Shown here: one piece after another, positions 1-32,327 of the stretch
Layout of the letters: each line of letters begins with the position of its first letter
How positions within the stretch are numbered: the stretch's first letter is position 1
Virus record (IMG/VR): IMGVR_UViG_2713896901_000010
Source: a virus
Lineage: Duplodnaviria > Heunggongvirae > Uroviricota > Caudoviricetes
Strand: one strand, 5' to 3'
DNA: 35,122 nt
The notes under the pieces: generated by a model
Seen by the model: the letters and a program-made list of their open reading frames with translations, nothing else
Told to the model about the DNA's origin: nothing
The model's database searches: none
Position numbers and translations under genes: made by a program

Positions 1-258
1 ATGCAGCAGTATCACTATCCACTGGAAGACGGATTTACCGAAAGGATTCACACGCCGGGAGGCGTCAGGTCACTGGTGGAGGGATCGCACTTGATGAAAT
101 TACTCCGGGATCTCAATAAGGATGGATTTAATGTCGATGGCCCACTTGCCGAACTGACTGCACTGATTAACTACGTCACCAGCTCACAGATGTCTATGCA
201 GGATCTGCAAACACATCTCGACTATTGTGCCGAACAATTACGAAAACAAACCAGATAA
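1..258 (+). CDS. C-terminal fragment of an antirepressor-family protein (5' end upstream of window)
   Basis: Frame open from window edge to TAA 256-258; its ~80 aa share ~45% identity with the C-terminal module of the two complete antirepressor genes (576-1226, 2008-2952). Confidence 0.5.
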   Translation: MQQYHYPLEDGFTERIHTPGGVRSLVEGSHLMKLLRDLNKDGFNVDGPLAELTALINYVTSSQMSMQDLQTHLDYCAEQLRKQTR

Positions 259-261
259 GGT

Positions 262-290
262 TTGAAATTACCAAGTGGAGTGCTTATATT
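262..290 (+). promoter_or_regulatory. sigma70-like promoter TTGAAA-N17-TATATT
   Basis: -35 TTGAAA 262-267, 17-bp spacer, -10 TATATT 285-290; last T of -10 is first T of operator 290-304. Confidence 0.5.
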
Positions 291-304
291 TACCTTTGCG
301 GTAA
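290..304. promoter_or_regulatory. operator dyad TTACC-N5-GGTAA (site A)
   Basis: Perfect 5+5 inverted half-sites ttacc tttgc ggtaa. Confidence 0.6.
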
Positions 305-394
305 ATTTACATCGCACTCCTCTTGTGCCATAGTAATCGGGCACTGGCAAAATCCAGTGTCGGGATTGGTCTCCCGGATTACTAAGTGGCGCAT

Positions 395-417
395 ACCACG
401 CCAGACGTGGTTTTTTT
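395..417 (+). terminator. rho-independent terminator
   Basis: Stem accacg/cgtggt with 5-nt loop followed by T7 run 411-417. Confidence 0.6.
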
Positions 418-575
418 ATGCGTATAGCACAGTCATGCCAGAATTATGGTGGGCTGAATGGGGGTCCGAAAGGACGCCGGTACCACTTAGGCCGGTAAGA
501 CCAACTCCGTTCAGTTCACCACCATCTGATTGGTCTCAGCGGTGGTGATGTAATTCGCTAAGTGGAGACGCCATA

Positions 576-1226
576 ATGAACGCTCAACTCATCCCCGTAT
601 TCAACGGCACTATATCCAACGAAACCGCTCTTCTCGTTAATGCCCGTGATTTACACACTTTCCTCGATGTGGGTAAGCGATTTGCTTCGTGGATTGTCGA
701 ACGAATTGCTGAATATGGTTTCGTTGAAAATCAAGACTTTATGATTATTTCCCAAGTTCGGGAAAAAATAGGCAGAGGCCGTCCTGCAAAAGACTACCAC
801 CTCACCCTCGATACAGCCAAAGAGCTGGCGATGGTCGAGCGTAACGAAAAAGGTCGTCAGGTACGACGCTACTTCATTGAATGCGAGAAACGTTTAAGAC
901 AACAAGAAACAAAAGTGGAGAAGGTCTTGTCAGGCTTCATGCCCGCCATTATGGAGGCGATCAAGCTGGAAGACAAAAAAGAATACAGCGCCCCGCTGAA
1001 GCCCGGCTACCGCAGTCTGATTCATTCTCCGTCTGGTGTTCTCGGCCTGACGGAGAACTCACTGCTGATGAATCTGCTGAACCAGTTACAGGACGACGGG
1101 CACGACGTATCGGGCGCGGCGGCGGAGCTGACAACCATGTTCTGCTACATCGTCGGTGTGAGCAAATGCCTGCGTGATATCCAGACACACGCGGAGTACA
1201 TCAACGACAAGGCAGGATTCTTCTGA
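576..1226 (+). CDS. phage antirepressor, KilAC-type N-terminal domain plus shared C-terminal module
   Basis: ATG 576 with GGAG 9 nt upstream; N-terminal ...DYHLTLDTAKELAMVERNEKGRQVRRYFIECEKR matches the KilA-C/ANT antirepressor signature; last 80 aa identical to the C-terminus of the 2008-2952 product. Confidence 0.8.
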   Translation: MNAQLIPVFNGTISNETALLVNARDLHTFLDVGKRFASWIVERIAEYGFVENQDFMIISQVREKIGRGRPAKDYHLTLDTAKELAMVERNEKGRQVRRYFIECEKRLRQQETKVEKVLSGFMPAIMEAIKLEDKKEYSAPLKPGYRSLIHSPSGVLGLTENSLLMNLLNQLQDDGHDVSGAAAELTTMFCYIVGVSKCLRDIQTHAEYINDKAGFF

Positions 1227-1248
1227 CGGCGGCGGCACAGGGATGTGC
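994..1248. repeat. inverted repeat arm 1 (~255 bp, ~95% identical to reverse complement of 1985-2241)
   Basis: Direct comparison: only a handful of synonymous third-position differences plus one 3-5 nt indel just after the stop codon. Confidence 0.8.
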
Positions 1249-1260
1249 CTTTAAATAATT
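1234..1260 (+). terminator. weak hairpin terminator after antirepressor gene
   Basis: ggcaca-ggga-tgtgcc hairpin followed by tttaaataatt; lies inside the inverted repeat. Confidence 0.35.
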
Positions 1261-1290
1261 CTGTACAGATTGCAGGTGAATAGCGTACTA

Positions 1291-1305
1291 TTACCCCAAA
1301 GGTAA
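1291..1305. promoter_or_regulatory. operator dyad TTACC-N5-GGTAA (site B)
   Basis: ttacc ccaaa ggtaa; abuts a -10-like TACTAT (1286-1291), 14 bp upstream of ATG 1319. Confidence 0.6.
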
Positions 1306-1318
1306 ACCGAGAGTTTAC

Positions 1319-1534
1319 ATGAGGGGGGGAAGCATGGAACTGAACATCATCACATTAATGAAAGCGCTTATTGGCGGTGCAGGAAGTGGCTTTGCTCTTT
1401 CTGGCGGGCTGTCTATGATCATACCTACTTTCACAGTGACGACTGGCGTTGCCTACCTTTTTGCCATTACTGGCGGTCTGGCTATGGCAGGTACTTACAT
1501 TTTAAAAAAAATGAGTTCCGGTAGTGCAGACTGA
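1319..1534 (+). CDS. small glycine-zipper membrane peptide (66-71 aa), function unknown
   Basis: ATG 1319 or ATG 1334 preceded by GAGGGGGGG; product MELNIITLMKALIGG/AGSGFALSGGLSMIIPTFTVTTGVAYLFAITGGLAMAGTYILKK is hydrophobic with repeated small-xxx-small motifs; AT-rich. Confidence 0.55.
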   Translation: MRGGSMELNIITLMKALIGGAGSGFALSGGLSMIIPTFTVTTGVAYLFAITGGLAMAGTYILKKMSSGSAD

Positions 1535-1871
1535 GATCGTACAAGAATCACATTGGTACAATCCACAGACCGCTCAGGAGCTGGCGATCTTTTATTGTAT
1601 CCTTTGCATTGTGTATATAGTAATCCACCTGATATGGGATTTTCTCTCAAAAGAGACTGGTAGGTTTTCTGTTGTTAACCTTCAGTACAAACTGAATGAG
1701 GTATATTCATCAACCACATTCGCAACGAGTGGTTTTTTCCTCGTTATGTTATGCGACATGAATAACCCTCTTAGAACATCAGATGCGTTTATCATACCGC
1801 TTATCTTGGCAATGCTTACTGGATTCATGATATCAATATCCGCAATAGCGCCAAAAAAAGTTAACATTTAA
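1524..1871 (+). CDS. predicted 3-TM membrane protein (start uncertain, GTG 1524)
   Basis: Overlaps stop of upstream gene; three hydrophobic segments; no ATG before residue 75, so the start is unresolved; stop TAA 1869-1871 sits at the foot of a strong terminator. Confidence 0.4.
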   Translation: MQTEIVQESHWYNPQTAQELAIFYCILCIVYIVIHLIWDFLSKETGRFSVVNLQYKLNEVYSSTTFATSGFFLVMLCDMNNPLRTSDAFIIPLILAMLTGFMISISAIAPKKVNI

Positions 1872-1893
1872 GCCCGCACTGCGGGCTTTTTTG
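1871..1893 (+). terminator. rho-independent terminator
   Basis: agcccgc-act-gcgggct hairpin followed by TTTTTT. Confidence 0.75.
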
Positions 1894-1930
1894 TGTCTGC
1901 GGATTCCCGCCCGGGCGGCGGTGGCATTCG

Positions 1931-1956
1931 TTAAAAACAAGGCCGCGAAAGCGGCC
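1931..1956 (-). terminator. rho-independent terminator for the minus-strand ant gene
   Basis: On minus strand GGCCGC-tttc-GCGGCC followed by TTGTTTTT. Confidence 0.6.
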
Positions 1957-1957
1957 T

Positions 1958-1969
1958 GTGACATGTCAC
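1958..1969. repeat. 12-bp perfect palindrome GTGACATGTCAC (copy 1 of 2)
   Basis: Identical 12-mer recurs at 22609-22620; both copies sit just 5' of a minus-strand terminator. Confidence 0.5.
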
Positions 1970-1984
1970 GATAGTTCCGTTTTG

Positions 1985-2241
1985 CACATCCCTGTGCCGC
2001 CGTTCTGTCAGAAGAACCCTGCCTTGTCGTTGATGTACTCCGCGTGGGTCTGGATATCACGCAGGCACTTGCTCACACCGACGATGTAGCAGAACATGGT
2101 GGTCAGCTCCGCCGCCGCGCCCGATACATCGTGCCCGTCGTCCTGTAACTGGTTAAGCAGATTCATCAGCAGTGAGTTCTCCGTCAGGCCGAGAACACCC
2201 GACGGCGAATGAATCAGACTGCGGTAGCCGGGCTTCAGCGG
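1985..2241. repeat. inverted repeat arm 2 (partner of 994-1248)
   Basis: Reverse complement matches 994-1248 at ~95%. Confidence 0.8.
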
Positions 2242-2952
2242 ATAACCATAACATTTTGTCTGTGTTTTAATTGCCTCACGAAGCGCATCTAACATCTTGA
2301 CTGCCACTTCATCATTCTCTGATGCAGATCCAGCAGGGAGATGCTCCCCTTCAAGCGGAACCCGAGCAACAAGAGACAACGCTTCGGCGAATTGATCTTC
2401 ATCAATTTCTTTGTACGAACAGCCAAAATGAGATTTCAGTGACGACCACATGGTGATCATCGCCTTAGCCTGTTTTTCTTTTGGCAGAGACTGACCGCGA
2501 CTCATGACGAGTTGTTTAATGGCTTCCTGCTGTTCAGTGGTTATTTTACCCGGCAGCGCCTTTTTAGCTTTGCGTGGGTTAACCACATGGCCTTTAGTCC
2601 AGTACTCGTAGAGCACATCGTCACACTCTTCCTGATACTGGATTACCTTGTCGCGGATTTCAGGGCGGACTTTGTTAGGGCTGATGGTTTGCAACCAGCC
2701 AGCAAGTTTGCGAAGTGCCAAACAAATAATCTCACGGCGCTGTTCATCCCCAGGAAGCTGCATTGTGATTTTCACAATGCAGGTTTTAAACCGCTGCTTC
2801 ATTTTCGTAAACTGTGAAGCCCAATCCATACCCATGCCTTCAACGATAGGTTTCATTGGGGTGTACGGTTCTCCGTTGTGATTGACAACATAAAGTTCTG
2901 CGCCGTGGAATGGCACGTTGATAGTAGATACCGCTGTTGCTATACTCGCCAT
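2008..2952 (-). CDS. ant: antirepressor Ant (P22 Ant-like N-terminus plus shared C-terminal module)
   Basis: ATG 2952 with AGGA upstream; N-terminus ...INVPFHGAELYVVNHNGEPYTPMKPIVEGMG resembles P22 Ant ...SYVPFNGQQVRTVLIDGEPWF; sits downstream of arc as in P22 immI. Confidence 0.8.
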   Translation of the reverse strand: MASIATAVSTINVPFHGAELYVVNHNGEPYTPMKPIVEGMGMDWASQFTKMKQRFKTCIVKITMQLPGDEQRREIICLALRKLAGWLQTISPNKVRPEIRDKVIQYQEECDDVLYEYWTKGHVVNPRKAKKALPGKITTEQQEAIKQLVMSRGQSLPKEKQAKAMITMWSSLKSHFGCSYKEIDEDQFAEALSLVARVPLEGEHLPAGSASENDEVAVKMLDALREAIKTQTKCYGYPLKPGYRSLIHSPSGVLGLTENSLLMNLLNQLQDDGHDVSGAAAELTTMFCYIVGVSKCLRDIQTHAEYINDKAGFF

Positions 2953-3024
2953 GTCGTTAATTCCTATACGTAGTTTTACGATACTGAAGCCCTGACGGTC
3001 TGGCCACCGTTGGGCTTCGCTGTT

Positions 3025-3192
3025 TTATGCCACGCTATTCTTCTCACCAGTGAGTCCATACACTTTCCTCAGCTGATAGATAATCTCTGTATTGAACTTT
3101 CGGCATTCTTTTTCGCCATTTCTTTCAATAGCTAACTTCACATCGTCCGGAAAACGAACTCGTCGTTGACACATCTCTTTTGCTTTTTGCAT
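3025..3192 (-). CDS. arc: Arc-like ribbon-helix-helix repressor (55 aa)
   Basis: Internal ATG 3192 with AAGGAG at 7-nt spacing; RRVRFPDDVKLAIERNGEKECRKFNTEIIYQL parallels P22 Arc RWPREVLDLVRKVAEENGRSVNSEIYQRV. Confidence 0.75.
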   Translation of the reverse strand: MQKAKEMCQRRVRFPDDVKLAIERNGEKECRKFNTEIIYQLRKVYGLTGEKNSVA

Positions 3193-3206
3193 TTCATATC
3201 TCCTTG

Positions 3207-3266
3207 GCCCCACCGTGGGGCAAAACAATTGTCACACCGTGCGTCATTGATGTCAAGCACACGGTG
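3207..3266. promoter_or_regulatory. divergent arc/mnt control region with three spaced CACCGTG/CACGGTG heptamers
   Basis: caccgtg 3211-3217 (inside palindrome gccccaccgtggggc 3207-3221), caccgtg 3235-3241, cacggtg 3260-3266; spacing 24 and 25 bp. Confidence 0.5.
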
Positions 3267-3312
3267 AGGCATACTTCAATCATTGCAAGTAACTCAATAT
3301 TTGGTGAAGAAC

Positions 3313-3744
3313 ATGAGCAGAGAAGATCCACAACTAAGGATCAGACTTCCCGTTGAAGTAAAAGAAAAAATAGAAATTTCTGCAAAAGCCAATAAGCGAT
3401 CAATGAACGCTGAAATAGTACAACGTCTTGACACCAGCTTTCTGAAAGATATTCATGAAGATGACGTAATTTCTGCTTATGAAGCAAAAATTATTGCAAA
3501 CAATGCACGGCATGAAATATCAAATATTATTTTCAAAAGAACTTTTAATGAAATCAATAAGAAAATAACACTTGGACATACAAGTTTTTATATAAACCTT
3601 AATGACCTTGAACTGGAATCACTTGCAGATAATGATTACCAGATCATCTTTGAAAAAACATTTAATAAGCTCAATGAACTAGGTTACATCATCTGTGAAA
3701 ACTCATGGGATGCAGATGGTTTTGGAATTGAAATACCTGAATAG
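3313..3744 (+). CDS. mnt: Mnt-like RHH repressor with ~60-aa extra C-terminal extension
   Basis: ATG 3313 (table start 3283 is TTG); MSREDPQLRIRLPVEVKEKIEISAKANKRSMNAEIVQRL closely parallels P22 Mnt MARDDPHFNFRMPMEVREKLKFRAEANGRSMNSELLQIV; divergent from arc-ant as in P22. Confidence 0.8.
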   Translation: MSREDPQLRIRLPVEVKEKIEISAKANKRSMNAEIVQRLDTSFLKDIHEDDVISAYEAKIIANNARHEISNIIFKRTFNEINKKITLGHTSFYINLNDLELESLADNDYQIIFEKTFNKLNELGYIICENSWDADGFGIEIPE

Positions 3745-3786
3745 GAAGAACAAAAGGCGTGTACATATTACACGTCTTTAATACAA

Positions 3787-4398
3787 TTGAAAAACGCCAC
3801 ATTACTGATGTATGTTACAACAAGGAGCGATATTTTGAAAACCATATCTATATTAAAGGTTGCATTAGGCGTCGCTATTATTTTGACTCTCTCAATATTG
3901 TTTTATTTTTACCACAAAAAAACTGCTATTGCTCTTGATGGTCACGCGGCAAACTCATTTTTCTCAGAGTACATAGTGCCGCTATCAGGAAGCGGTATAA
4001 CAAATAAATATACTGACTATGACATCAAATATGGAATTGATGATGGGGAGACTATTGCATTACATGTAATCATTAAAAACCTAATGACAGTAAATAAAAA
4101 TACAGACTTCAACGATAAAAATACAATACATCACAACAACAGCAAAACATTAATTTCTTATAGTAGCAACATCTATACGGATAAATACCTAAAATACATC
4201 TCAGAAGATACAATAAAAGCAACCAGCGAAAAGTTAAAAAACATATATTGTGCATCCGGCAGTTTTCACAAATTATCGCCGCAAGAGCGTTTATTCTACG
4301 AAGCAAGAAAACAACGTAAGTCAATAATATTCCATTATTATGCTGATTCAGGGGAGTCACTCATATTTAATATTGGGGTTTCCCCTGAATCATGCTAA
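3787..4398 (+). CDS. membrane-anchored protein of unknown function at the sieA position
   Basis: Most likely start is TTG 3835 (AAGGAG 3822-3827, 7-nt spacer), alternative ATG 3808; one N-terminal TM helix then an Asn/Lys/Tyr-rich domain; very AT-rich. Confidence 0.55.
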   Translation: MKNATLLMYVTTRSDILKTISILKVALGVAIILTLSILFYFYHKKTAIALDGHAANSFFSEYIVPLSGSGITNKYTDYDIKYGIDDGETIALHVIIKNLMTVNKNTDFNDKNTIHHNNSKTLISYSSNIYTDKYLKYISEDTIKATSEKLKNIYCASGSFHKLSPQERLFYEARKQRKSIIFHYYADSGESLIFNIGVSPESC

Positions 4399-4409
4399 AG
4401 GCGTTTAAC

Positions 4410-7400
4410 TCACCGCATCACCGGATCCACCTGGTTTATTAGTGGCGCAATCCAGAACAGGTTATTGCCTGGTATCAGGGTTCGGACATTATGCACAATA
4501 CGATCACCGGCATCACCATTCAACACTCCTGCGGTCACATCAATGATGCTATCCGCAAGACCAAATGACGGTCCGAATAGAGATCCTACGAATCCACGAC
4601 TGGCATACCTAGACTGTGTGCCAGTGCCAAATAAAGCCCCCAGCCCAACAGCACCACCAGTAGCCTTTTCAGCCATGTTGTTATATTCCATCAATGGCCC
4701 AAGAATACCGGATCTATCTATACCCTCAAGCACCAGCTTCTCTGGTGACCAGTCAACATTTTTCCCTTTCGATGCTTCTTTTAGCGCATAGACCAGTGAG
4801 CCAAGAGCAATCTGAAATGCAGTGCCATAATAAAATTGCGCAGTTCCTTCCTGTAACCCACCAAGTAGCGCACGGTTGTATGAAGCCGTTGTGAATGATT
4901 TAAACTGAAATATCGTTCGCCCCATTGGAGTACTCGCCCATAAAGGTGTGTCACCAATACCGGGGGTGATGATAGTGTTATTAACGTCTTTCAGAACCGC
5001 TGACTGGAATACTCCGGCAACGTACTGATCGTCCCATTTATCAAAGTTACCAATGTGCCATCCATCAATTACCTCACCATGTTTCTCGAACTCACTGCGA
5101 ATACGCGCAGCCATATTGTCGTTGATACCGAGTTTTGCCATGCGACGTGCAGAAAACGCACCAGACAAAATACCGTCTGACGTGAGCATTCCGTTCATGG
5201 ATTTGTTTATGTCATTAAATCGATCCATGAGTGTCAGCTTGCCGAAGGCATCAGTAATTCGCTCCATTCCTGCTTCGACTGCTGTTGTCCTGGAAGAACT
5301 GTCAACAAGATCACCAATTGCACGAGAACGTGAATGTAGTACAGCTTCCAATCCAATCCCCATCTTCAACATCTCTTCTTTGCTGGCCTTAAATGCCGGT
5401 GATTGGGATATCTGAGAAGCATAGCCTTTCATGGTGTTACGGAAACCATTAACCATAACCCCTCTGGCCAGATCTGGAATAGCTGATACTGTCATTCCAC
5501 CGAGTTTGGTCGTGAAGTTCACATCCCGCAGAAAAGCGCCAGCACGAACAAAAAACGAAGACGGATCATCAGGCATACCATATGTACCAACAAGACGATC
5601 GCGTAATGCTGTTATGTCTCTGAGATCATTTGCTCTTGATTTTGAAAGTCTGGACTGTTCTTTCCGTAATTCCTTTTCGTACTTTCGCATTAATGAATCG
5701 AGTTTACCCTGAGGAACAACTTCACCATTGCTCTCATAACGTGCTTTCAGATTTGCCACACTTTCGTCATATTTCGCCTTTATTTTTTCAGGCACTTCCC
5801 GTAACAGACTGTCATATTCGTCCTCAATTAATTGCAGACGCTCAGTCATAGTTCGTTTGCCAAATGTTCTCGTCAACTCAATTTCTGCTGCCGCTTCACG
5901 GATATGACGTTGCAGCACGTAATTCACATCACTTTCAAGATAATCCCTGATAAGACTATCAGGAACATTTAATGTTCTTTCTTTCGTACTACCTGCGGCT
6001 TTTACAGAAAATACGCTGACAAAATCCTGTGGAACCTTAGCACCAGTAATTTTATTAATTACGATATCCGCTGCAATTTCAGCATCCTCAGGATCCAGTG
6101 TTTTATTTCCTCTCGACCACCAGCCAACCAAAATACGTCGAAATTTATCGCGTTCACTGATTATTTTTCCAACTTTATATATGCGTGGGAAATAGCTTGC
6201 CTGGCCTAATGCTTTCAGTTCTTCATCTGGCGGCAATAAACCAAGCTTTTGCATTTCAACTTTCACCCGATTTAATACAGTTCGCATCGCCTGCGCCGTT
6301 TCCTGAACAACAGGATTAGCATGCACATCACCGCTTCGCATAGCATTCCCAACCTGCTGACGAAATGAATCAAAACTCATGTCACCACCATCAGCTTTAT
6401 ACTTTGCGTATGCCTGTTTATTTCCGACAACAACAGCAGCTTCTTCACGCTGCCATCCACGTGTACGGGTTTCTACAGCTACCGGTGTTTCAATCCCCCT
6501 TTCATTTCCTTTAAGGGTGAAATTATTTTCGGCTAACTCCAGCGTTGTTTTTCGCACCGTCTTGGACGGAGACTCCATTAACCTTGTCAAAGGAGTAAGA
6601 TAGCTCCCTGCTTTCCATGCAGCCTTTCCAACCCACCCACCGGAAACAGGGGTTAAATCATCCAGAGTCGCTGTATCAATTTTCATAGCACCAACACTAC
6701 CACCATCGGAAAGCGAAGCGGCAGCCCTGTCAGTCGCTGATGTAATGCTCATATTATCAAGAGCATCAGCAACCTCACGTGTGGCTGCAGCCCGGACGGA
6801 TGGCGAAAGCGCAACACCAGCACTGGCAAACACGCCGCTCATCATCGCACCCGCTGCAACGTGAGCGGCACTTTCACCCCATGAGCGTGTTATTTGCTGA
6901 TTATTCAGTACAACCTCGCTTAATGCTGTACCGGCAGCACCAATCGCAATCTGTGAGCCAATACGCGCCAGTGCCCCTCCTTGAGCACCGGGAATAAACA
7001 TTGACGCAACAGTAACCGGATCCATTCCCGCAGCAATACTGGCAAGGGTTCCAACTACGCCAGCATCAGACAATAAACGTCTGTCTTCATTTTCATCATC
7101 TATCTGCTGCTTAATCCACGCCGTTTCCTCTGGCGATCGGGAATCTGCAAATTTCGCCCCCCAGTATTCATAACCGTGCAACTCATTTTTATCAGCATAT
7201 GGGTTATAACCCTCGACCGGTTCAAACTGTCTGGCTGGGCGGAAAAAACCAGACAGAATATTGTTCTGTCGCATTGCAGCCCCCCATACGGAAGGCTCAG
7301 GTGGCAATGGCTCAGGATTAGCCCCTTCCGGAAGGGCAACATCAAACCCAGTTTGTTCCGGCAAAACATTACCTGACGGGATCAGTCCGTTATTAAGATC

Positions 7401-19447: not shown

Positions 19448-19462
19448 TTACCTTTCAGGTAA
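19448..19462. promoter_or_regulatory. operator dyad TTACC-N5-GGTAA (site C)
   Basis: ttacc tttca ggtaa, with TTGACA at 19426-19431. Confidence 0.5.
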
Positions 19463-19784: not shown

Positions 19785-19861
19785 GTGGCATTAGCTCAGT
19801 TGGACAGAGCAACCGCCTTCTAAGCGGTTGGTCGCAGGTTCGAATCCTGCATGCCACGCCA
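19785..19861 (+). tRNA. tRNA-Arg (anticodon UCU), phage-encoded
   Basis: Manual cloverleaf: acceptor GTGGCAT/ATGCCAC, U8, D-stem GCTC/GAGC with GG in loop, anticodon stem ACCGC/GCGGT, loop CUUCUAA, T-stem GCAGG/CCTGC with TTCGAAT loop, discriminator G, encoded CCA; differs from E. coli argU as I recall it. Confidence 0.9.
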
Positions 19862-21905: not shown

Positions 21906-22498
21906 TGATTGCCATCCTGACGTTCTTTGAGTCGCTTCCTGGCTGCTGCTATGCGATCAGCAATTGTCACACTCACATTAACATCCAGGCGTTCTTTGAA
22001 TGCGTTGACGTCGACGTGCTTACCAATCAGTTCGAGGTTCTTCACCTTGTCAGGCCACTTAATTTTTTTGAGGATTGTCTCTATCGAATCCTCGTTCATG
22101 TTCATGATGGTCGATGACAGATCAAAGCCGCTAAGCGTAGTGCGCCAGATTTTCGGCCACTCGCGGATTGGTTTAAGGCTCCCATCGTCGTTGAGGATGT
22201 CGATCACGTCCATCTGGTCGATCTCCACCAGGCGCATGAGAACGTAATCAGCACTGACGCGCATTCGTTTGTTGCGCTCCTCCATCAACTCGGCAATCCG
22301 TTTCTGAATGCGTTCATCGCGCATCATGACACTGGCTTTAACTGCCGCTGTATTTGGGGAGAATCCTGCGTTAATCGCTGCCTGAGTCTGGTTTTCAGGC
22401 GTTTTGATGTATGACTGGCAATAAGCCTCCTGCATTGCTGTTAGTGGCTTAAATTGCGTTGATTTGCGTTTATAGGTTTTAGGTTCAGCAGGCATCAT
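21902..22498 (-). CDS. terS: terminase small subunit (~197 aa)
   Basis: Immediately upstream of and overlapping terL; basic helical N-terminal region; likely start is the ATG pair 22498/22495 rather than table TTG 22576. Confidence 0.75.
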   Translation of the reverse strand: MMPAEPKTYKRKSTQFKPLTAMQEAYCQSYIKTPENQTQAAINAGFSPNTAAVKASVMMRDERIQKRIAELMEERNKRMRVSADYVLMRLVEIDQMDVIDILNDDGSLKPIREWPKIWRTTLSGFDLSSTIMNMNEDSIETILKKIKWPDKVKNLELIGKHVDVNAFKERLDVNVSVTIADRIAAARKRLKERQDGNQ

Positions 22499-22530
22499 AA
22501 CCACCGTGGTAATAGTTACCGTTGTGGTAA
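22498..22530. promoter_or_regulatory. tandem operator dyads upstream of terS (sites D2 and D1)
   Basis: 22516-22530 ttacc gttgt ggtaa (10/10); 22498-22512 taacc accgt ggtaa (9/10) overlapping the terS start codon and GGTGG RBS. Confidence 0.55.
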
Positions 22531-26974: not shown

Positions 26975-26989
26975 TTACCTCTTAGGTAA
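26975..26989. promoter_or_regulatory. operator dyad TTACC-N5-GGTAA (site E1)
   Basis: ttacc tctta ggtaa, 3 nt upstream of ATG 26971; contains the GAGGT RBS on the minus strand. Confidence 0.55.
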
Positions 26990-27017
26990 TTAAAAACCAC
27001 ATAAGACACGAAATCAA
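26989..27017 (-). promoter_or_regulatory. sigma70-like promoter TTGATT-N17-TTTAAT (minus strand)
   Basis: -35 at 27012-27017, -10 at 26989-26994, flanked by operators E1 and E2. Confidence 0.45.
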
Positions 27018-27036
27018 TAGAGTTTAGAATATTTTA

Positions 27037-27051
27037 TTACCCAACAGGTAA
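27037..27051. promoter_or_regulatory. operator dyad TTACC-N5-GGTAA (site E2)
   Basis: ttacc caaca ggtaa. Confidence 0.55.
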
Positions 27052-28983: not shown

Positions 28984-28998
28984 TTACCTTTGAGGTAC
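28984..28998. promoter_or_regulatory. near-perfect operator dyad (site F, 9/10)
   Basis: ttacc tttga ggtac. Confidence 0.35.
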
Positions 28999-29003
28999 GA
29001 ATA

Positions 29004-29031
29004 GATATGAAAAGACCGCCGGATGGCGGTC
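29004..29031 (-). terminator. tR1-like hairpin terminator after the cro-like gene
   Basis: On minus strand GACCGCC-atcc-GGCGGTC followed by TTTTCATAT. Confidence 0.5.
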
Positions 29032-29053
29032 TACAGAGGTTTGTGGCTGGATA

Positions 29054-29284
29054 TCATGAGTAGAAGAAGTATGCCAGTTCTGCTTTTGAGCGCAGCCATT
29101 GTCTTGTTTTACAGGCTTTAAAAAGCCCATTCATCAATACCTTACCTGGCATTTTGCGCTTACCTGTTAAGTGAGTCTGGATATAGTGACTCGTCGTTCC
29201 GGCTTCCTGTGCGAAGGCTTCACGCTCATCCGGAGTAAGTGCAAGCCAGTGCTTTTTGAAATCGAAATGTCCGTTATCGCTCAT
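29054..29284 (-). CDS. Cro-like HTH regulator (76 aa)
   Basis: Divergent from the repressor gene across an operator-rich region; TPDEREAFAQEAGTTSHYIQTHLTGKR has helix-turn-helix character. Confidence 0.55.
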   Translation of the reverse strand: MSDNGHFDFKKHWLALTPDEREAFAQEAGTTSHYIQTHLTGKRKMPGKVLMNGLFKACKTRQWLRSKAELAYFFYS

Positions 29285-29320
29285 AGCTATTGCCTGATAT
29301 TTATTTCAGATAATAAATAT

Positions 29321-29383
29321 TCACCCATAAGGTAACAAAAATCAAGGATAGTTACCTATGAGGTGCATTTACCTGTTGGGTAA
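29321..29383. promoter_or_regulatory. OR-like operator cluster (three dyads)
   Basis: 29321-29335 tcacc cataa ggtaa (9/10); 29352-29366 ttacc tatga ggtgc (8/10); 29369-29383 ttacc tgttg ggtaa (10/10). Confidence 0.6.
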
Positions 29384-29438
29384 TATTGCTTTAAATTGAA
29401 TCATCTACTGATTCATATATGAGGCGATTTTCCAGAAA

Positions 29439-30023
29439 ATGAAAAGTATCCAGGACGTCCGCAGGCAAAATCTCAACGACTTGATCGACCGTGAATTCAA
29501 TGGTGTTCAGACGCGGATGGCAGAAAAACTTGGAACTCAGGCAAATCTGGTAAACCGCTGGGCTCTTGGAAAGAAGGTTATCGGCGACCAGGTTGCGCGA
29601 AAAATTGAAGCTGCCGCCAATAAACCCCGTAACTGGCTTGATATCGATCGCTCGCTTTCTCAGGAAGGTTTTCAGCCTGTCGGCCCAAGCGACATTGGTC
29701 AGCTGGCGGCTCACAACCTGGAACGCTGGATGAGCGAAAGCCGCGACCTTTCAACACAGGGAAAACTTCACCGCGCATCCGGCGTCGCCCAGGTGACAAT
29801 CAGCCGCCTGTTAAACAATGAGGTCAGCGTTTCCATTTCCACCTTGGAGAATGTTGCATCCGCATTCGGGCGTCACGGCTATGAATTACTGATTCACCCG
29901 CACGACCCTGCGACCATCAACTATGACCGCTCGCGCTACGCATTGTTACCCGAAACCGAGAAAGCAAAGATCGAAAGTTACATTGAATTTGTCATCAATC
30001 AGAACGAAAAAAACAAACAATAA
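29439..30023 (+). CDS. CI-like repressor with two HTH motifs and no S24 peptidase domain (194 aa)
   Basis: N-terminal XRE-type HTH (MAEKLGTQANLVNRW) plus second HTH (SGVAQVTISRLLNNEVSVSISTLENVA); no Ser/Lys autoproteolysis domain visible. Confidence 0.7.
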   Translation: MKSIQDVRRQNLNDLIDREFNGVQTRMAEKLGTQANLVNRWALGKKVIGDQVARKIEAAANKPRNWLDIDRSLSQEGFQPVGPSDIGQLAAHNLERWMSESRDLSTQGKLHRASGVAQVTISRLLNNEVSVSISTLENVASAFGRHGYELLIHPHDPATINYDRSRYALLPETEKAKIESYIEFVINQNEKNKQ

Positions 30024-30044
30024 GATCATAGTTTTCAGTAAGTA

Positions 30045-30068
30045 AGCCGCCTTCTGGCGGCTTTTTTA
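30045..30068 (+). terminator. rho-independent terminator after the repressor gene
   Basis: agccgcc-ttct-ggcggct followed by TTTTTT. Confidence 0.8.
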
Positions 30069-30080
30069 TTGCCTGTTCGA

Positions 30081-30095
30081 TTACCTGGTGGGTAA
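30081..30095. promoter_or_regulatory. operator dyad TTACC-N5-GGTAA (site H1)
   Basis: ttacc tggtg ggtaa. Confidence 0.6.
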
Positions 30096-30114
30096 TTTTT
30101 TTAACTCATATCTA

Positions 30115-30143
30115 TTGACATCAAACCAGATACGCATAATTAT
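30115..30143 (+). promoter_or_regulatory. pL-like promoter TTGACA-N17-AATTAT
   Basis: Consensus -35 at 30115-30120; -10 at 30138-30143 whose last T is the first base of operator H2. Confidence 0.55.
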
Positions 30144-30157
30144 TACCTCAACGGTAA
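30143..30157. promoter_or_regulatory. operator dyad TTACC-N5-GGTAA (site H2)
   Basis: ttacc tcaac ggtaa. Confidence 0.6.
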
Positions 30158-30331: not shown

Positions 30332-30631
30332 ATGAACGTTAATCAGCAGAAAAATCTTCAAAAAATCATGCAGGCATTCGACAAGGACTACCGCCTGTCA
30401 GAACAGCTATATGACCGACAAGTCGAACTGATTGAGAGTATCCGGATTCATCAACTGTCCTCAACTTTCGACGTTGTAACAGGCAAAGGCGTTCGTCAGG
30501 AAGTACTGGAGGCTGCTAAAGACAGCCCTGAGTTCGAAGAACTGATGGATGCCTATCGGCGAGAGGCAATGGCAATTATCGCCCGCTGGGATCTGGCTGA
30601 TCGGCTTGATGGACAGAGGGACGCGGCATGA
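30332..30631 (+). CDS. hypothetical protein (99 aa)
   Basis: ATG 30332 with GGGAGG at 7-nt spacing; ATGA overlap with exonuclease gene. Confidence 0.45.
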   Translation: MNVNQQKNLQKIMQAFDKDYRLSEQLYDRQVELIESIRIHQLSSTFDVVTGKGVRQEVLEAAKDSPEFEELMDAYRREAMAIIARWDLADRLDGQRDAA

Positions 30632-31449
30632 AACCGGGAATTTATTTCGACATCAGCAACGAAGACTACCACGCCGGTGACGGCGTGAGTAAGTCGCAAC
30701 TGGACATGGTTGCCAAGAATCCGGCGCTTCTTAAATGGGTTCAGGCAGCACCAGAAGACGAAGAGAAAAAGTCTGCACTGGATATGGGAACCGCATTGCA
30801 CTGTCTGCTTCTGGAACCTGGAGAATTCGACAAACGCTTCATCGTTTCACCGAAATTCGATCGTCGGACAAAACAAGGTAAAGCTGACGAAGAAGCATTT
30901 CTTCGTGATGTGGCGGATATGGGTATTACGGTACTTGATGTCGAGCAGTGGCGAAAACTGGAGCTGATGCGTGATAGCGCAATGGCTCATCCGGCAGCAC
31001 GCTGGATGTTGGAAGCACCTGGTTACTGCGAAGCATCAATGTACTGGAACGATGAAGAGACGGGTGAGTTGTGCCGAATTCGTCCAGACAAATGGCTGAA
31101 CGAGCACAACGTGATCGTCGACGTGAAAAAGGTTGCAGATATGGACCGTTTTGCACGCCACATCGAGGAATTCCGCTACCACGTGCAGGACGCAATGTAC
31201 CGCGAAGGCGCAATGAGGGTTACTGGTCAGACGCATGGTTTTTTCTTTCTTGCCGTGAGCGAAAGCATTGATTGTGGTCGGTATCCGGTACGCGTGTTCG
31301 AGCTGGACGCGCCGGATGTCGATGCCGGGCACGCTCTGTTCCGCCGGGATCTGAATACCTATCACGAATGCCGCATCAACGATGAATGGGGCGGAGTGGA
31401 AATTATTAAACGCCCTGACTGGGCACGTAAACAGGATATGTACGTATGA
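30628..31449 (+). CDS. PD-(D/E)XK-family exonuclease (RecE/YqaJ-like), partner of the annealing protein (273 aa)
   Basis: N-terminal GIYFDISNEDYHAGDGVSKSQL, HCLLLEPGEFDKRF, and D-x-K in IVDVKKV; translationally coupled to the downstream annealing-protein gene. Confidence 0.65.
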   Translation: MKPGIYFDISNEDYHAGDGVSKSQLDMVAKNPALLKWVQAAPEDEEKKSALDMGTALHCLLLEPGEFDKRFIVSPKFDRRTKQGKADEEAFLRDVADMGITVLDVEQWRKLELMRDSAMAHPAARWMLEAPGYCEASMYWNDEETGELCRIRPDKWLNEHNVIVDVKKVADMDRFARHIEEFRYHVQDAMYREGAMRVTGQTHGFFFLAVSESIDCGRYPVRVFELDAPDVDAGHALFRRDLNTYHECRINDEWGGVEIIKRPDWARKQDMYV

Positions 31450-32327
31450 GCAATGATATCGCAATCACATCACAACCAGGCGCAACTGTAGGCACTGCTG
31501 CGGCAATCTTCAACCCCGAGGGCATGAATCAACTGGTGCGTTTCGCGGAGTTGATGTCACAAAGCAAAGCGACTGTACCGAAACATCTTGAAGGCAAACC
31601 TGCCGATTGCCTGGCGGTGACCATGCAGGCGGCACAGTGGGGAATGAACCCTTTCGCCGTGGCGCAGAAAACGCATGTGGTAAACGGAACGTTAGGCTAC
31701 GAAGCACAGTTGGTAAACGCGGTCGTATCCTCTTCCAGCCTGCTGGCGACACGCCTGAATTATCGCTGGAGCGGTGACTGGTCGAATGTTAACGGCAAAA
31801 CAGATAAATCACCGAATCTGACGGTAACTGTGTCAGCAGTTCTTAAAGGAGAAGCAGAACCACGTGAGCTTACCATCAGTATGGCGCAAGCCGGAGTGCG
31901 TAACTCTCCATTGTGGGAACAGGATCCGCGCCAGCAGCTTGCCTATCTTTGCACGAAACGATGGGCTCGCCTGCACGCTCCTGATGTACTTCTCGGTGTT
32001 TACACCCCTGACGAATTACAGGAAACGGCACCACGCGTTGAACGAGACATTACTCCGCAAACAACTACGGCTGCGGGAATGAATAGTCTGATCAACGCTA
32101 AAACAGTGAAAAAGCCTGATGAGCAAACACGTAAAGCGGATAGCCGTGATCCAGAAGAAATGCTGATGGCCTTTACCAGCGCAGCGATGAATTACAGCAC
32201 TGTCTCCGAACTGGATAAGGCTTACAAATACATTGCACAAAAACTTTCAGATGATGACGAACTGCTGGCAAAAGCCACCGACGTTTACAGCGTTCGTCGG
32301 GAAGAATTAAACGAAACATCTATGTAA
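31446..32327 (+). CDS. Bet/RecT-like single-strand annealing protein (293 aa)
   Basis: ADCLAVTMQAAQWGMNPF parallels lambda Bet AQFIALLIVANQYGLNPW; ERDITP motif shared with Bet. Confidence 0.7.
   Translation: MSNDIAITSQPGATVGTAAAIFNPEGMNQLVRFAELMSQSKATVPKHLEGKPADCLAVTMQAAQWGMNPFAVAQKTHVVNGTLGYEAQLVNAVVSSSSLLATRLNYRWSGDWSNVNGKTDKSPNLTVTVSAVLKGEAEPRELTISMAQAGVRNSPLWEQDPRQQLAYLCTKRWARLHAPDVLLGVYTPDELQETAPRVERDITPQTTTAAGMNSLINAKTVKKPDEQTRKADSRDPEEMLMAFTSAAMNYSTVSELDKAYKYIAQKLSDDDELLAKATDVYSVRREELNETSM

Follow-up and report, generated by a model that had tools for sequence, protein, structure and literature searches.

The segment at 28984-30157 of the DNA analysed here (the window, 35,122 nucleotides in total) very probably constitutes the switch between lysis and lysogeny (immunity switch) in an epsilon15/phiV10-type phage, with a Rep/Ant system of the SPC32H type in which a non-cleavable repressor is released by an antirepressor. 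The window is a Uetakevirus prophage, an epsilon15/phiV10-type podovirus of Escherichia coli, and TL-2011b is the closest relative of its left arm (1-4400). The Rep/Ant mechanism is already known, having been elucidated, crystal structures included, for a relative, Salmonella phage SPC32H. The initial annotation, which predicted induction through antirepressors and not through RecA-stimulated self-cleavage, is supported, but its prediction is not new. For the exact Rep-Ant pair of the window, the reading given here is based on homology to SPC32H.

Operators of the switch region

The operator motif is a 15-bp dyad, TTACC-N5-GGTAA, of which six copies were identified in 28984-30157.

28984-28998, operator after the cro terminator: TTACCTTTGAGGTAC, 1 mismatch
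29321-29335, operator nearest cro: TCACCCATAAGGTAA, 1 mismatch; within the likely pR, at its spacer and -10 region
29352-29366, middle operator of the cro-rep gap: TTACCTATGAGGTGC, 2 mismatches; position conserved
29369-29383, operator nearest rep: TTACCTGTTGGGTAA, 0 mismatches; overlaps the invariant GGTAATAT
30081-30095, upstream pL operator: TTACCTGGTGGGTAA, 0 mismatches; its centre is 62 bp from that of the next operator
30143-30157, pL operator: TTACCTCAACGGTAA, 0 mismatches; overlaps the -10 element and the transcription start

The initial annotation had proposed three operators between the cro-like and repressor genes (29321, 29352 and 29369, all in a gap of 154 bp), two flanking a pL-like promoter beyond the repressor terminator (30081 and 30143, around 30115-30143) and a near-perfect one after a tR1-like terminator (28984-28998, beyond 29032-29013). 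All six were recovered at these positions, with 0-2 mismatches to the motif. A dyad at 29160 with two mismatches, considered as a seventh site, was dropped, since it lies in the cro coding sequence and is probably fortuitous.

Throughout the window, 12 dyads with no more than one mismatch were counted against 0.67 expected (~18-fold), and none of 100 shuffles reached this number. All 13 sites fall in intergenic DNA; about 10% of the window is non-coding. When the window is aligned with Tyrion, BUCT711 and SPC32H, the half-sites and their spacing are invariant, whereas the spacers and flanks vary. Orthologous positions in TL-2011b, SPC32H, Tyrion, BUCT711 and epsilon15 carry the dyad, and six genomes have conserved palindromic operators at their early promoters. 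For example, the 28984 site has orthologues with one mismatch in Tyrion (35365) and BUCT711 (6032), SPC32H and BUCT711 have an exact dyad at the position of 29352-29366, and the spacing of the pL pair (62-63 bp) is kept in TL-2011b, Tyrion, BUCT711, SPC32H and epsilon15. The pL region of SPC32H has a third operator, of which the window contains only a half-site.

In the GenBank record of epsilon15, ATTACC-N5-GGTAAT sequences are marked as repressor-binding sites across the genome, namely upstream of terS, the head operon, ant and pL and after the replication genes, while the three cro-rep sites are left unmarked. The genome-wide spread of the dyad was therefore rejected as a new finding.

It is very improbable that the dyads mainly serve a regulator other than Rep, such as the Cro-like protein or the phrog_536 regulator encoded upstream of the terminase genes. 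Cro and CI do share operators in lambdoid phages, and a CI-type repressor would not usually have sites in front of late and tRNA units. However, the DNA-binding helix of Rep (NLVNRW) and the half-site are both invariant across the same genomes despite Rep identities of only 42-45%, and the epsilon15 curators assign the dyads to the repressor. In addition, Rep has been reported as a tetramer on palindromic sites (PMC9638917). Sharing of the dyads by Cro would be compatible with Rep as their principal ligand.

The cro-like gene, promoters and terminators

29054-29284, - strand, cro-like gene: phrog_35 'transcriptional repressor', E 5.6e-13; first gene of the rightward early operon
29032-29013, - strand, terminator after cro: also annotated in phiV10
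30044-30063, + strand, rho-independent terminator after rep: also annotated in phiV10
30115-30143, + strand, putative pL-like promoter: TTGACA-17-AATTAT, 10 of 12 consensus positions

The cro-like gene is divergent from rep and has orthologues in phiV10 (p41) and epsilon15 (gp39). The likely pR consists of TTGATT (29347-29342), N17 and GAATAT, and its -35 block, AAAAATCAA, does not vary among four genomes; the pair TTGTTA-17-TATTAT returned by a promoter scan was rejected as less well supported. At the putative pL, CTATTGACA is likewise invariant in four genomes. A consensus search for the rep promoter yielded no convincing hexamer pair. The invariant GGTAATAT is possibly the -10 element of this promoter, situated in the operator 29369-29383 and combined with a poor -35 element.

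The repressor

29439-30023, + strand, rep: 194-aa repressor

Rep is homologous to SPC32H Rep (PDB 5D50_A; phmmer E 4e-42, residues 1-190, 41-42% identity). Its residues 89-190 match PDB 5D4Z, and 5D50 and 5D4Z are also the top Foldseek matches. It is 100% identical to phiV10 p40, which has already been annotated with 'two helix-turn-helix motifs', and to ORF21 of ZX5. Two HTH motifs had also been noted in the initial annotation, and two HTH-type Pfam matches were indeed obtained (YdaS-like, 21-61; HTH_3, 106-147); by homology to SPC32H Rep, however, the second is a dimerisation domain and not a second DNA reader. On the same basis, Rep would comprise an N-terminal DNA-binding HTH domain (~1-70), a middle HTH-fold dimerisation domain (~89-150) and a C-terminal tetramerisation and Ant-binding domain (~151-190). 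The domain names and architecture, including a C-terminal domain that both tetramerises and binds Ant, are those described for SPC32H Rep (PMC9986798).

No S24 peptidase was found in Rep by Pfam search even at E<=1, which returned HTH families only, and HTH domains but no peptidase domain were found in its homologues (0 of 86 clusters). The absence of a peptidase-like domain, as initially described, was thereby borne out, and no cryptic peptidase came to light in Rep or in these clusters. The AlphaFold model is entirely helical, the C-terminal half consisting of an HTH-fold domain and a short C-terminal helix, so that all 194 residues are accounted for. The C-terminal S24 domain of lambda CI and LexA, with its Ser/Lys dyad and Ala-Gly cleavage site, is not present in Rep. 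Inactivation by RecA-stimulated self-cleavage through a cryptic module, for which we found no support beyond its being the default lambda paradigm, is extremely improbable in view of this composition. The SPC32H homologue is also reported as uncleaved: Kim & Ryu 2013 (J Virol 87:11775) and Kim et al. 2016 (PNAS 113:E2480) reportedly found that SPC32H Rep is not cleaved by RecA on induction and is inactivated by a LexA-controlled small Ant.

SPC32H Rep is a tetramer that binds palindromic sites and is dismantled by Ant (PMC9638917), as also summarised in PMC9986798. When the identical repressor of ZX5, ORF21, was overexpressed, free phage was abolished and lysis-gene transcripts fell by >99.9% (PMC9782041). 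The ZX5 experiments on antirepression used a Bro-N protein, not small Ant (PMC9782041).

The small antirepressor and its predicted LexA control

1-258, + strand, small ant: 85 aa, first ORF of the window

The product of this gene is 87% identical to SPC32H Ant (PDB 5D50_E, E 2e-46), the partner of Rep in the solved Rep-Ant complex. As Rep is a full-length homologue of SPC32H Rep and a cognate Ant is encoded in the same window, induction via antirepressors, as initially predicted, is supported by homology, and small Ant is likely the primary inducer.

In relatives, ant is associated with LexA boxes. In TL-2011b, E. coli OkiPb01684 (partial locus), SPC32H and BUCT711, a box of 19-26 bits precedes ant by 20-40 nt, as scored with a matrix derived from 21 E. 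coli boxes. The Tyrion box (22 bits) is located upstream of gp21, which is at the corresponding locus but was not compared with Ant. Among the four relatives scanned whole, the strongest box of the genome is at the ant locus in TL-2011b and SPC32H (directly upstream of ant) and in Tyrion (upstream of gp21); BUCT711 has a box upstream of ant, yet a stronger one elsewhere. Within the window, CTGT-N8-ACAG occurs 12 times against 12 expected, and the best matrix score is 12.8 bits, below that of the weakest training site (14.9 bits). The window starts at the ATG of ant, and the ant promoter region lies before position 1; that no LexA box is visible is thus probably due to where the window begins and not to an absence of SOS control. 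Under SOS control, a 20-mer close to TACTGTATAAATATACAGTT would be expected 20-40 nt before the ant ATG, upstream of window position 1.

Accessory antirepressor modules and outlying operators

Three antirepressor genes had been reported elsewhere in the window, and three are present (1-258, 576-1226 and 2008-2952). The second and third belong to two further modules in the left arm.

290-304, Rep-type operator: on the -10 element of a putative TTGAAA-17-TATATT promoter driving isrK, C4 and the AntA gene
341-417, + strand, isrK-like RNA: Rfam 65.5 bits, above the gathering threshold
442-526, + strand, C4 antisense-type RNA: Rfam 61.2 bits, above the gathering threshold
435-548, + strand, 37-codon upstream ORF: overlaps the isrK/C4 RNA region (341-526)
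576-1226, + strand, second antirepressor gene: N-terminal Pfam AntA, E 8e-28
2008-2952, - strand, P22-type ant: Pfam P22_AR_N, E 1e-44
2954-3021, + strand, sar RNA: Rfam 45.2 bits against a gathering threshold of 43
3025-3228, - strand, arc: only a PHROG Arc-like family match, E 2e-5
3283-3744, + strand, divergent Mnt-like gene with an Arc domain: Pfam Arc, E 1e-14

The C-terminal part of the AntA protein (133-214) belongs to the small-Ant family phrog_450 (E 4.6e-36), and its residues 135-212 are 40% identical to small Ant. Judged from sequence, 253-1226 appears to have the P1 immI-type arrangement, a C4-type RNA lying between a repressor-operated promoter and an ant gene. All components of a P22 immI-like set (ant, sar, arc and a divergent mnt-like gene) are present in 2008-3744.

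Induction mainly through the AntA-type protein (576-1226) or the P22-type Ant (2008-2952), with small Ant being secondary or aimed at other prophages, is improbable. It would accord with the presence of three antirepressor genes and with the Ant-like C-terminal domain of the AntA protein; moreover, overexpression of the Bro-N antirepressor lowered lysogeny in ZX5 (PMC9782041), and antirepressors of Salmonella prophages acting on non-cognate repressors have been documented (PMC3121763). However, no LexA box was found at either gene, and only small Ant is tied to a strong box in relatives. The AntA gene lies behind a Rep operator and the C4 and isrK RNAs and would therefore fire only once Rep has been weakened, and the P22-type ant is under its own Arc, sar and Mnt-like control.

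The six sites of the switch region are only part of the operator set; seven more dyads lie outside 28984-30157, at 290-304 and at the following places.

1291-1305, operator: coincides with a TACTAT -10-like element preceding small genes (1319-1871)
19448-19462, operator: flanked by the head-gene operon on one side and the tRNA-Arg unit on the other; the epsilon15 orthologue (2931-2947) is annotated 'repressor'
22498-22530, two adjacent operators: directly upstream of the small terminase gene
26975-26989 and 27037-27051, operator pair: 62 bp apart, around a putative TTGATA-16-TAAAAT promoter, after the replication-gene terminator

The terminase sites have orthologues in SPC32H, Tyrion and epsilon15, the epsilon15 site being annotated. 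Pairs orthologous to 26975-27051 were found in all relatives, and the epsilon15 site is again annotated 'repressor'.

Proposed mechanism of induction

In the lysogen, the N-terminal HTH of Rep would bind the 15-bp TTACC-N5-GGTAA dyads. By homology to SPC32H, Rep would be a tetramer presenting two pairs of DNA-binding domains, an arrangement that would fit the paired operators spaced 17, 31 and 62 bp apart. Bound Rep would cover the core of pR (cro and the replication genes) and of pL (the recombination and excision genes), as well as promoters elsewhere in the genome, at some eight locations. Having no peptidase domain, Rep is not expected to be cut by RecA. Instead, DNA damage would remove LexA from the box at the small ant promoter, 20-40 nt before the start of the window, and Ant would then bind the C-terminal domain of Rep and split the tetramer into dimers, upon which Rep would come off the DNA. 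The present analysis established the homologies and the missing peptidase as well as the dyad sites with their enrichment and conservation, whereas disassembly of the tetramer by Ant, the resistance of Rep to cleavage and LexA control of ant are taken from the SPC32H literature.

Loss of Rep would also open the promoter at 290, leading to production of the second antirepressor with its Ant-like C-terminal domain, a putative feed-forward loop that would reinforce the decision. We tentatively suggest a two-stage induction latch, in which LexA-controlled Ant weakens Rep, the isrK/C4-gated promoter (253-304) is released and the AntA-Ant fusion exerts positive feedback on Rep inactivation, together with cross-talk of immunity and antirepressors across the genus; this proposal is possible but doubtful. 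The cross-talk is predicted from the invariance of both the recognition helix of Rep and the half-site in Uetakeviruses of E. coli, Salmonella, Klebsiella and Enterobacter, whose Reps are only 42% identical. Neither the latch nor the cross-talk was found described in the literature other than the primary SPC32H papers.

Comparison with known systems

The window and SPC32H belong to the same genus and share gene order, half-sites (TTACC/GGTAA), operator positions, a full-length homologous Rep and a highly similar Ant (87% identity), and the nearest relatives of the window have a LexA box upstream of ant, as does SPC32H. They differ in host (E. coli for the window), in the low identity of their Reps (41-42%) and in the two further antirepressor modules of the window (P1/Gifsy-like and P22-like), which are not listed in the SPC32H annotation. 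The left arm (1-4400) also carries an accessory antirepressor set different from those of epsilon15, phiV10 and ZX5.

Like lambda CI and P22 C2, Rep is encoded divergently from a cro gene, with three operators between the two genes and pL operators beyond the repressor gene. Unlike lambda CI, P22 C2 and LexA, Rep lacks an S24 domain and would not undergo RecA-dependent cleavage, and its tetramer would pair DNA-binding domains across dimers, in contrast to cooperating dimers.

A non-cleavable repressor combined with a small LexA-controlled antirepressor gene outside the immunity region, as predicted for the window, is found in Gifsy-1, -2 and -3 (Lemire et al. 2011, PMC3121763), and FsoA of Fels-1 is a precedent for a second antirepressor under phage-repressor control (PMC3121763). 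The Gifsy proteins have been reported to interact as dimers, whereas Rep and Ant form tetramers; the likeness to GfoR/GfoA is one of logic. The 253-1226 module resembles P1 immI (C1 operator Op51, c4 antisense RNA, icd and ant) and the Gifsy-1 isrK locus (PMC4825925). In the shared layout, a promoter under a repressor operator precedes isrK and C4-type RNAs, followed by a short upstream ORF and, last, the antirepressor gene. Unlike the P1 locus, the module in the window would be accessory to a LexA/Ant trigger. The operators of Rep are scattered over the genome like those of P1 C1. C1 is not known to be related to Rep and has asymmetric operators.

Implications for phiV10-type prophages

The value of these results lies mostly in correct annotation, and no new question is opened. 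They imply that phiV10/TL-2011b-type prophages of E. coli, including those of O157 and other EHEC strains, carry an SPC32H-type non-cleavable repressor together with a LexA-controlled antirepressor, and that the unnamed 85-aa 'hypothetical protein' encoded at their left end is the likely trigger of induction. This may be of use in engineering phiV10-based reporter phages and in predicting the SOS inducibility of such prophages.

Repressor and identity of the prophage

A Pfam search of the 194-aa repressor (Rep; 29439-30023, plus strand) for an S24 peptidase or other folds detected no peptidase domain and returned only helix-turn-helix (HTH) families (YdaS-like, residues 21-61; HTH_3, residues 106-147). 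In a sequence search of the PDB, the full-length match was the repressor of Salmonella phage SPC32H (5D50_A; E = 4e-42; residues 1-190), and 5D4Z, the structure of the C-terminal fragment of the same protein, was also matched. The AlphaFold model of Rep is entirely helical (mean pLDDT 78.5) and has 5D50 and 5D4Z as its best Foldseek matches, and all 86 homologue clusters from Enterobacteriaceae comprise proteins of ~194 aa with HTH domains only. The claim of the initial annotation that the repressor lacks an autocleavage domain therefore holds, and RecA-dependent cleavage of Rep is very unlikely. Two papers (PMC9986798, PMC9638917) describe the first HTH domain of SPC32H Rep as DNA-binding, the second HTH-fold domain as a dimerisation module, and the last ~45 residues as a domain for both tetramerisation and antirepressor binding, and state that the antirepressor (Ant) takes apart the Rep tetramer. 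In phage ZX5, overexpression of ORF21, an identical repressor protein, blocked lytic growth, and an antirepressor encoded by ZX5 lowered lysogeny (PMC9782041).

The immunity region shares 97-99% DNA identity with phiV10, O157 typing phages 9 and 10, vB_EcoP_PAS61, ZX5, TL-2011b, and others, and matches that of Enterobacter phage Tyrion at 78%; for the structural half of the window, the nearest relative is TL-2011b. Judged by these matches to phiV10-type phages and TL-2011b, the window is an epsilon15/phiV10-like podovirus prophage of the genus Uetakevirus. The phiV10 record labels the Rep orthologue 'putative transcriptional repressor; two helix-turn-helix motifs' and marks both terminators of the switch named in the initial annotation. 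The genes for an exonuclease (273 aa) and RecT (293 aa) at 30628-32327 are separate and overlapping; phiV10 is annotated there with one fused 'recET' CDS.

Operators of the immunity region

All six of the operators previously proposed, 15-bp dyads of the form TTACC-N5-GGTAA that are predicted to bind Rep, were recovered by sequence and pattern searches where the initial annotation had placed them.

28984, dyad after the cro terminator
29032-29013, minus strand, terminator after cro
29054-29284, minus strand, cro-like gene
29321, 29352, and 29369, three dyads in the cro-rep gap
29439-30023, plus strand, repressor gene rep
30044-30063, repressor terminator
30081 and 30143, two dyads flanking the pL-like promoter
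30115-30143, pL-like promoter (TTGACA-17-AATTAT), downstream of the repressor terminator

With at most one mismatch allowed, the motif occurs 12 times in the window (0.67 expected), a count reached in none of 100 shuffles. All 13 dyads, a total that includes the two-mismatch site at 29352, fall in the non-coding 10% of the window. In alignments of the cro-rep and pL regions with Tyrion, BUCT711, and SPC32H, the half-sites and their spacing are invariant, whereas the spacers and flanks vary. On this sequence evidence, the dyads are real and under selection. Their use by a regulator other than Rep is improbable, as neither the recognition helix of Rep (NLVNRW) nor the half-site varies among genomes in which Rep identity is just 42-45%. 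A possible -10 element of the rep promoter is GGTAATAT, which lies within the operator at 29369-29383 and is invariant. For pR, TTGATT (29347-29342)-17-GAATAT was preferred to the promoter-scan call because its -35 element is invariant in four genomes.

Small Ant and the SOS response

Induction had been predicted to run through antirepressors, and the three antirepressor genes reported elsewhere in the window were confirmed.

1-258, small ant
576-1226, AntA-type antirepressor gene
2008-2952, P22-type ant

The product of the first (85 aa) shares 87% identity with SPC32H Ant and, in the solved Rep-Ant complex, matches the Ant chain (E = 2e-46). SPC32H Rep reportedly stays uncleaved in the SOS response, and LexA is said to repress Ant via a box on its promoter; the Ant tetramer is said to bind the C-terminal domains of Rep, so that the Rep tetramer becomes dimers and comes off the DNA. 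Homology to this Rep/Ant switch supports the antirepressor reading, and the SPC32H model, carried over by homology, is very probably the best explanation of the region.

No LexA box was found in the window: on a matrix of E. coli boxes the best score was 12.8 bits, whereas every training site scores 14.9 bits or more. The probable reason is that the window opens with the ATG of ant. Boxes of 19-26 bits lie 20-40 nt upstream of ant in TL-2011b, the E. coli OkiPb01684 prophage, SPC32H, and BUCT711, and Tyrion has a 22-bit box at the corresponding locus. Of the four relatives scanned whole, three have no strong box other than that at the ant locus; the fourth, BUCT711, has a further and stronger one elsewhere. 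The window edge probably cuts off both the LexA box of ant and an upstream Rep-type dyad, each of which is present in the nearest relatives, TL-2011b (6462-6481) and the OkiPb01684 prophage (1462-1481). The main alternative, in which one of the other two antirepressors rather than small Ant is the primary trigger, is unlikely, as their genes are without LexA boxes and stand behind Rep/C4 or Arc/sar control.

Accessory antirepressor modules

253-1226, module of promoter with Rep operator, isrK/C4 RNAs, upstream ORF, and AntA gene
341-417, isrK-like RNA
435-548, 37-codon upstream ORF overlapping the C4-type RNA
442-526, C4 antisense-type RNA
576-1226, AntA-family antirepressor gene
2008-3744, P22 immI-like set: ant (P22_AR_N), sar antisense RNA, arc, and a divergent 153-aa Arc-domain (Mnt-like) gene

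Sequence comparison shows homology between the C-terminal part of AntA and small SPC32H-type Ant: residues 135-212 are 40% identical to small Ant, with a hit to phrog_450, the family of small Ant, over residues 133-214 (E = 4.6e-36). The layout of 253-1226 is shared with P1 immI and with the Gifsy-1 isrK locus (PMC4825925), suggesting a second antirepressor controlled by Rep. Within the SPC32H-type model, such control would reinforce induction, and the module may form a feed-forward loop on Rep inactivation; Fels-1 FsoA is a precedent for a repressor-controlled antirepressor (PMC3121763). In the P22-like set, the sar match is only just above the Rfam threshold, and no Rep dyad was found near 2008-3744. 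The repressor targeted by this set may belong to another prophage.

Operators elsewhere in the genome

Seven more dyads lie beyond the region initially annotated, all of them intergenic and most on or beside promoter-like elements that follow terminators.

290-304, dyad on the -10 of a TTGAAA-17-TATATT promoter
1291-1305, dyad
19448-19462, dyad between the head operon and a tRNA-Arg gene
22498-22530, two dyads (22498 and 22516) directly upstream of the small terminase gene
26975-27051, two dyads (26975 and 27037) around a TTGATA-16-TAAAAT promoter, past the terminator ending the replication genes

Judging from these positions, almost all transcription units, the terminase/late unit and the tRNA unit among them, appear to be under Rep control. 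The tRNA-Arg gene (anticodon tct; 19785-19861, plus strand) is located in a morphogenesis region that otherwise lies on the minus strand, and a TTGACA promoter-like element upstream of it overlaps the dyad at 19448.

The motif is about tenfold enriched, at orthologous places, in TL-2011b, SPC32H, Tyrion, BUCT711, and epsilon15, and in all six genomes compared the two dyads of each pair, at pL and past the replication genes, keep a centre-to-centre distance of 62-63 bp (about six helical turns). These pairs, together with the 17- and 31-bp spacings in the cro-rep gap, would suit a tetramer presenting two pairs of DNA-binding domains, and a single Rep tetramer could bridge two dyads at the 62-63-bp spacing. 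The genome-wide spread was already on record: in GenBank, the epsilon15 entry, which cites 5d50_A for its own repressor, has ATTACC-N5-GGTAAT annotated as 'repressor' binding sites upstream of terS, the head operon, and the ant homologue, at three places for pL, and beyond the replication genes.

The observation in the initial annotation is confirmed and its interpretation supported; the non-cleavable repressor with two HTH folds, the dyad operators with their genome-wide spread, and antirepressor-driven SOS induction had all been either described or annotated in the genus. The fusion of an Ant-like domain to AntA behind a Rep operator may be undescribed, as may the lack of variation in operator and recognition helix throughout the genus. 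Phages of E. coli, Salmonella, Klebsiella, and Enterobacter share an unchanged helix NLVNRW (in the region of Rep residues 1-70, 29439-29650) and half-site, and Ant (87%) is much more conserved than Rep (42-45%). At the sequence level, this pattern hints at cross-talk of immunity or of antirepressors across the genus.
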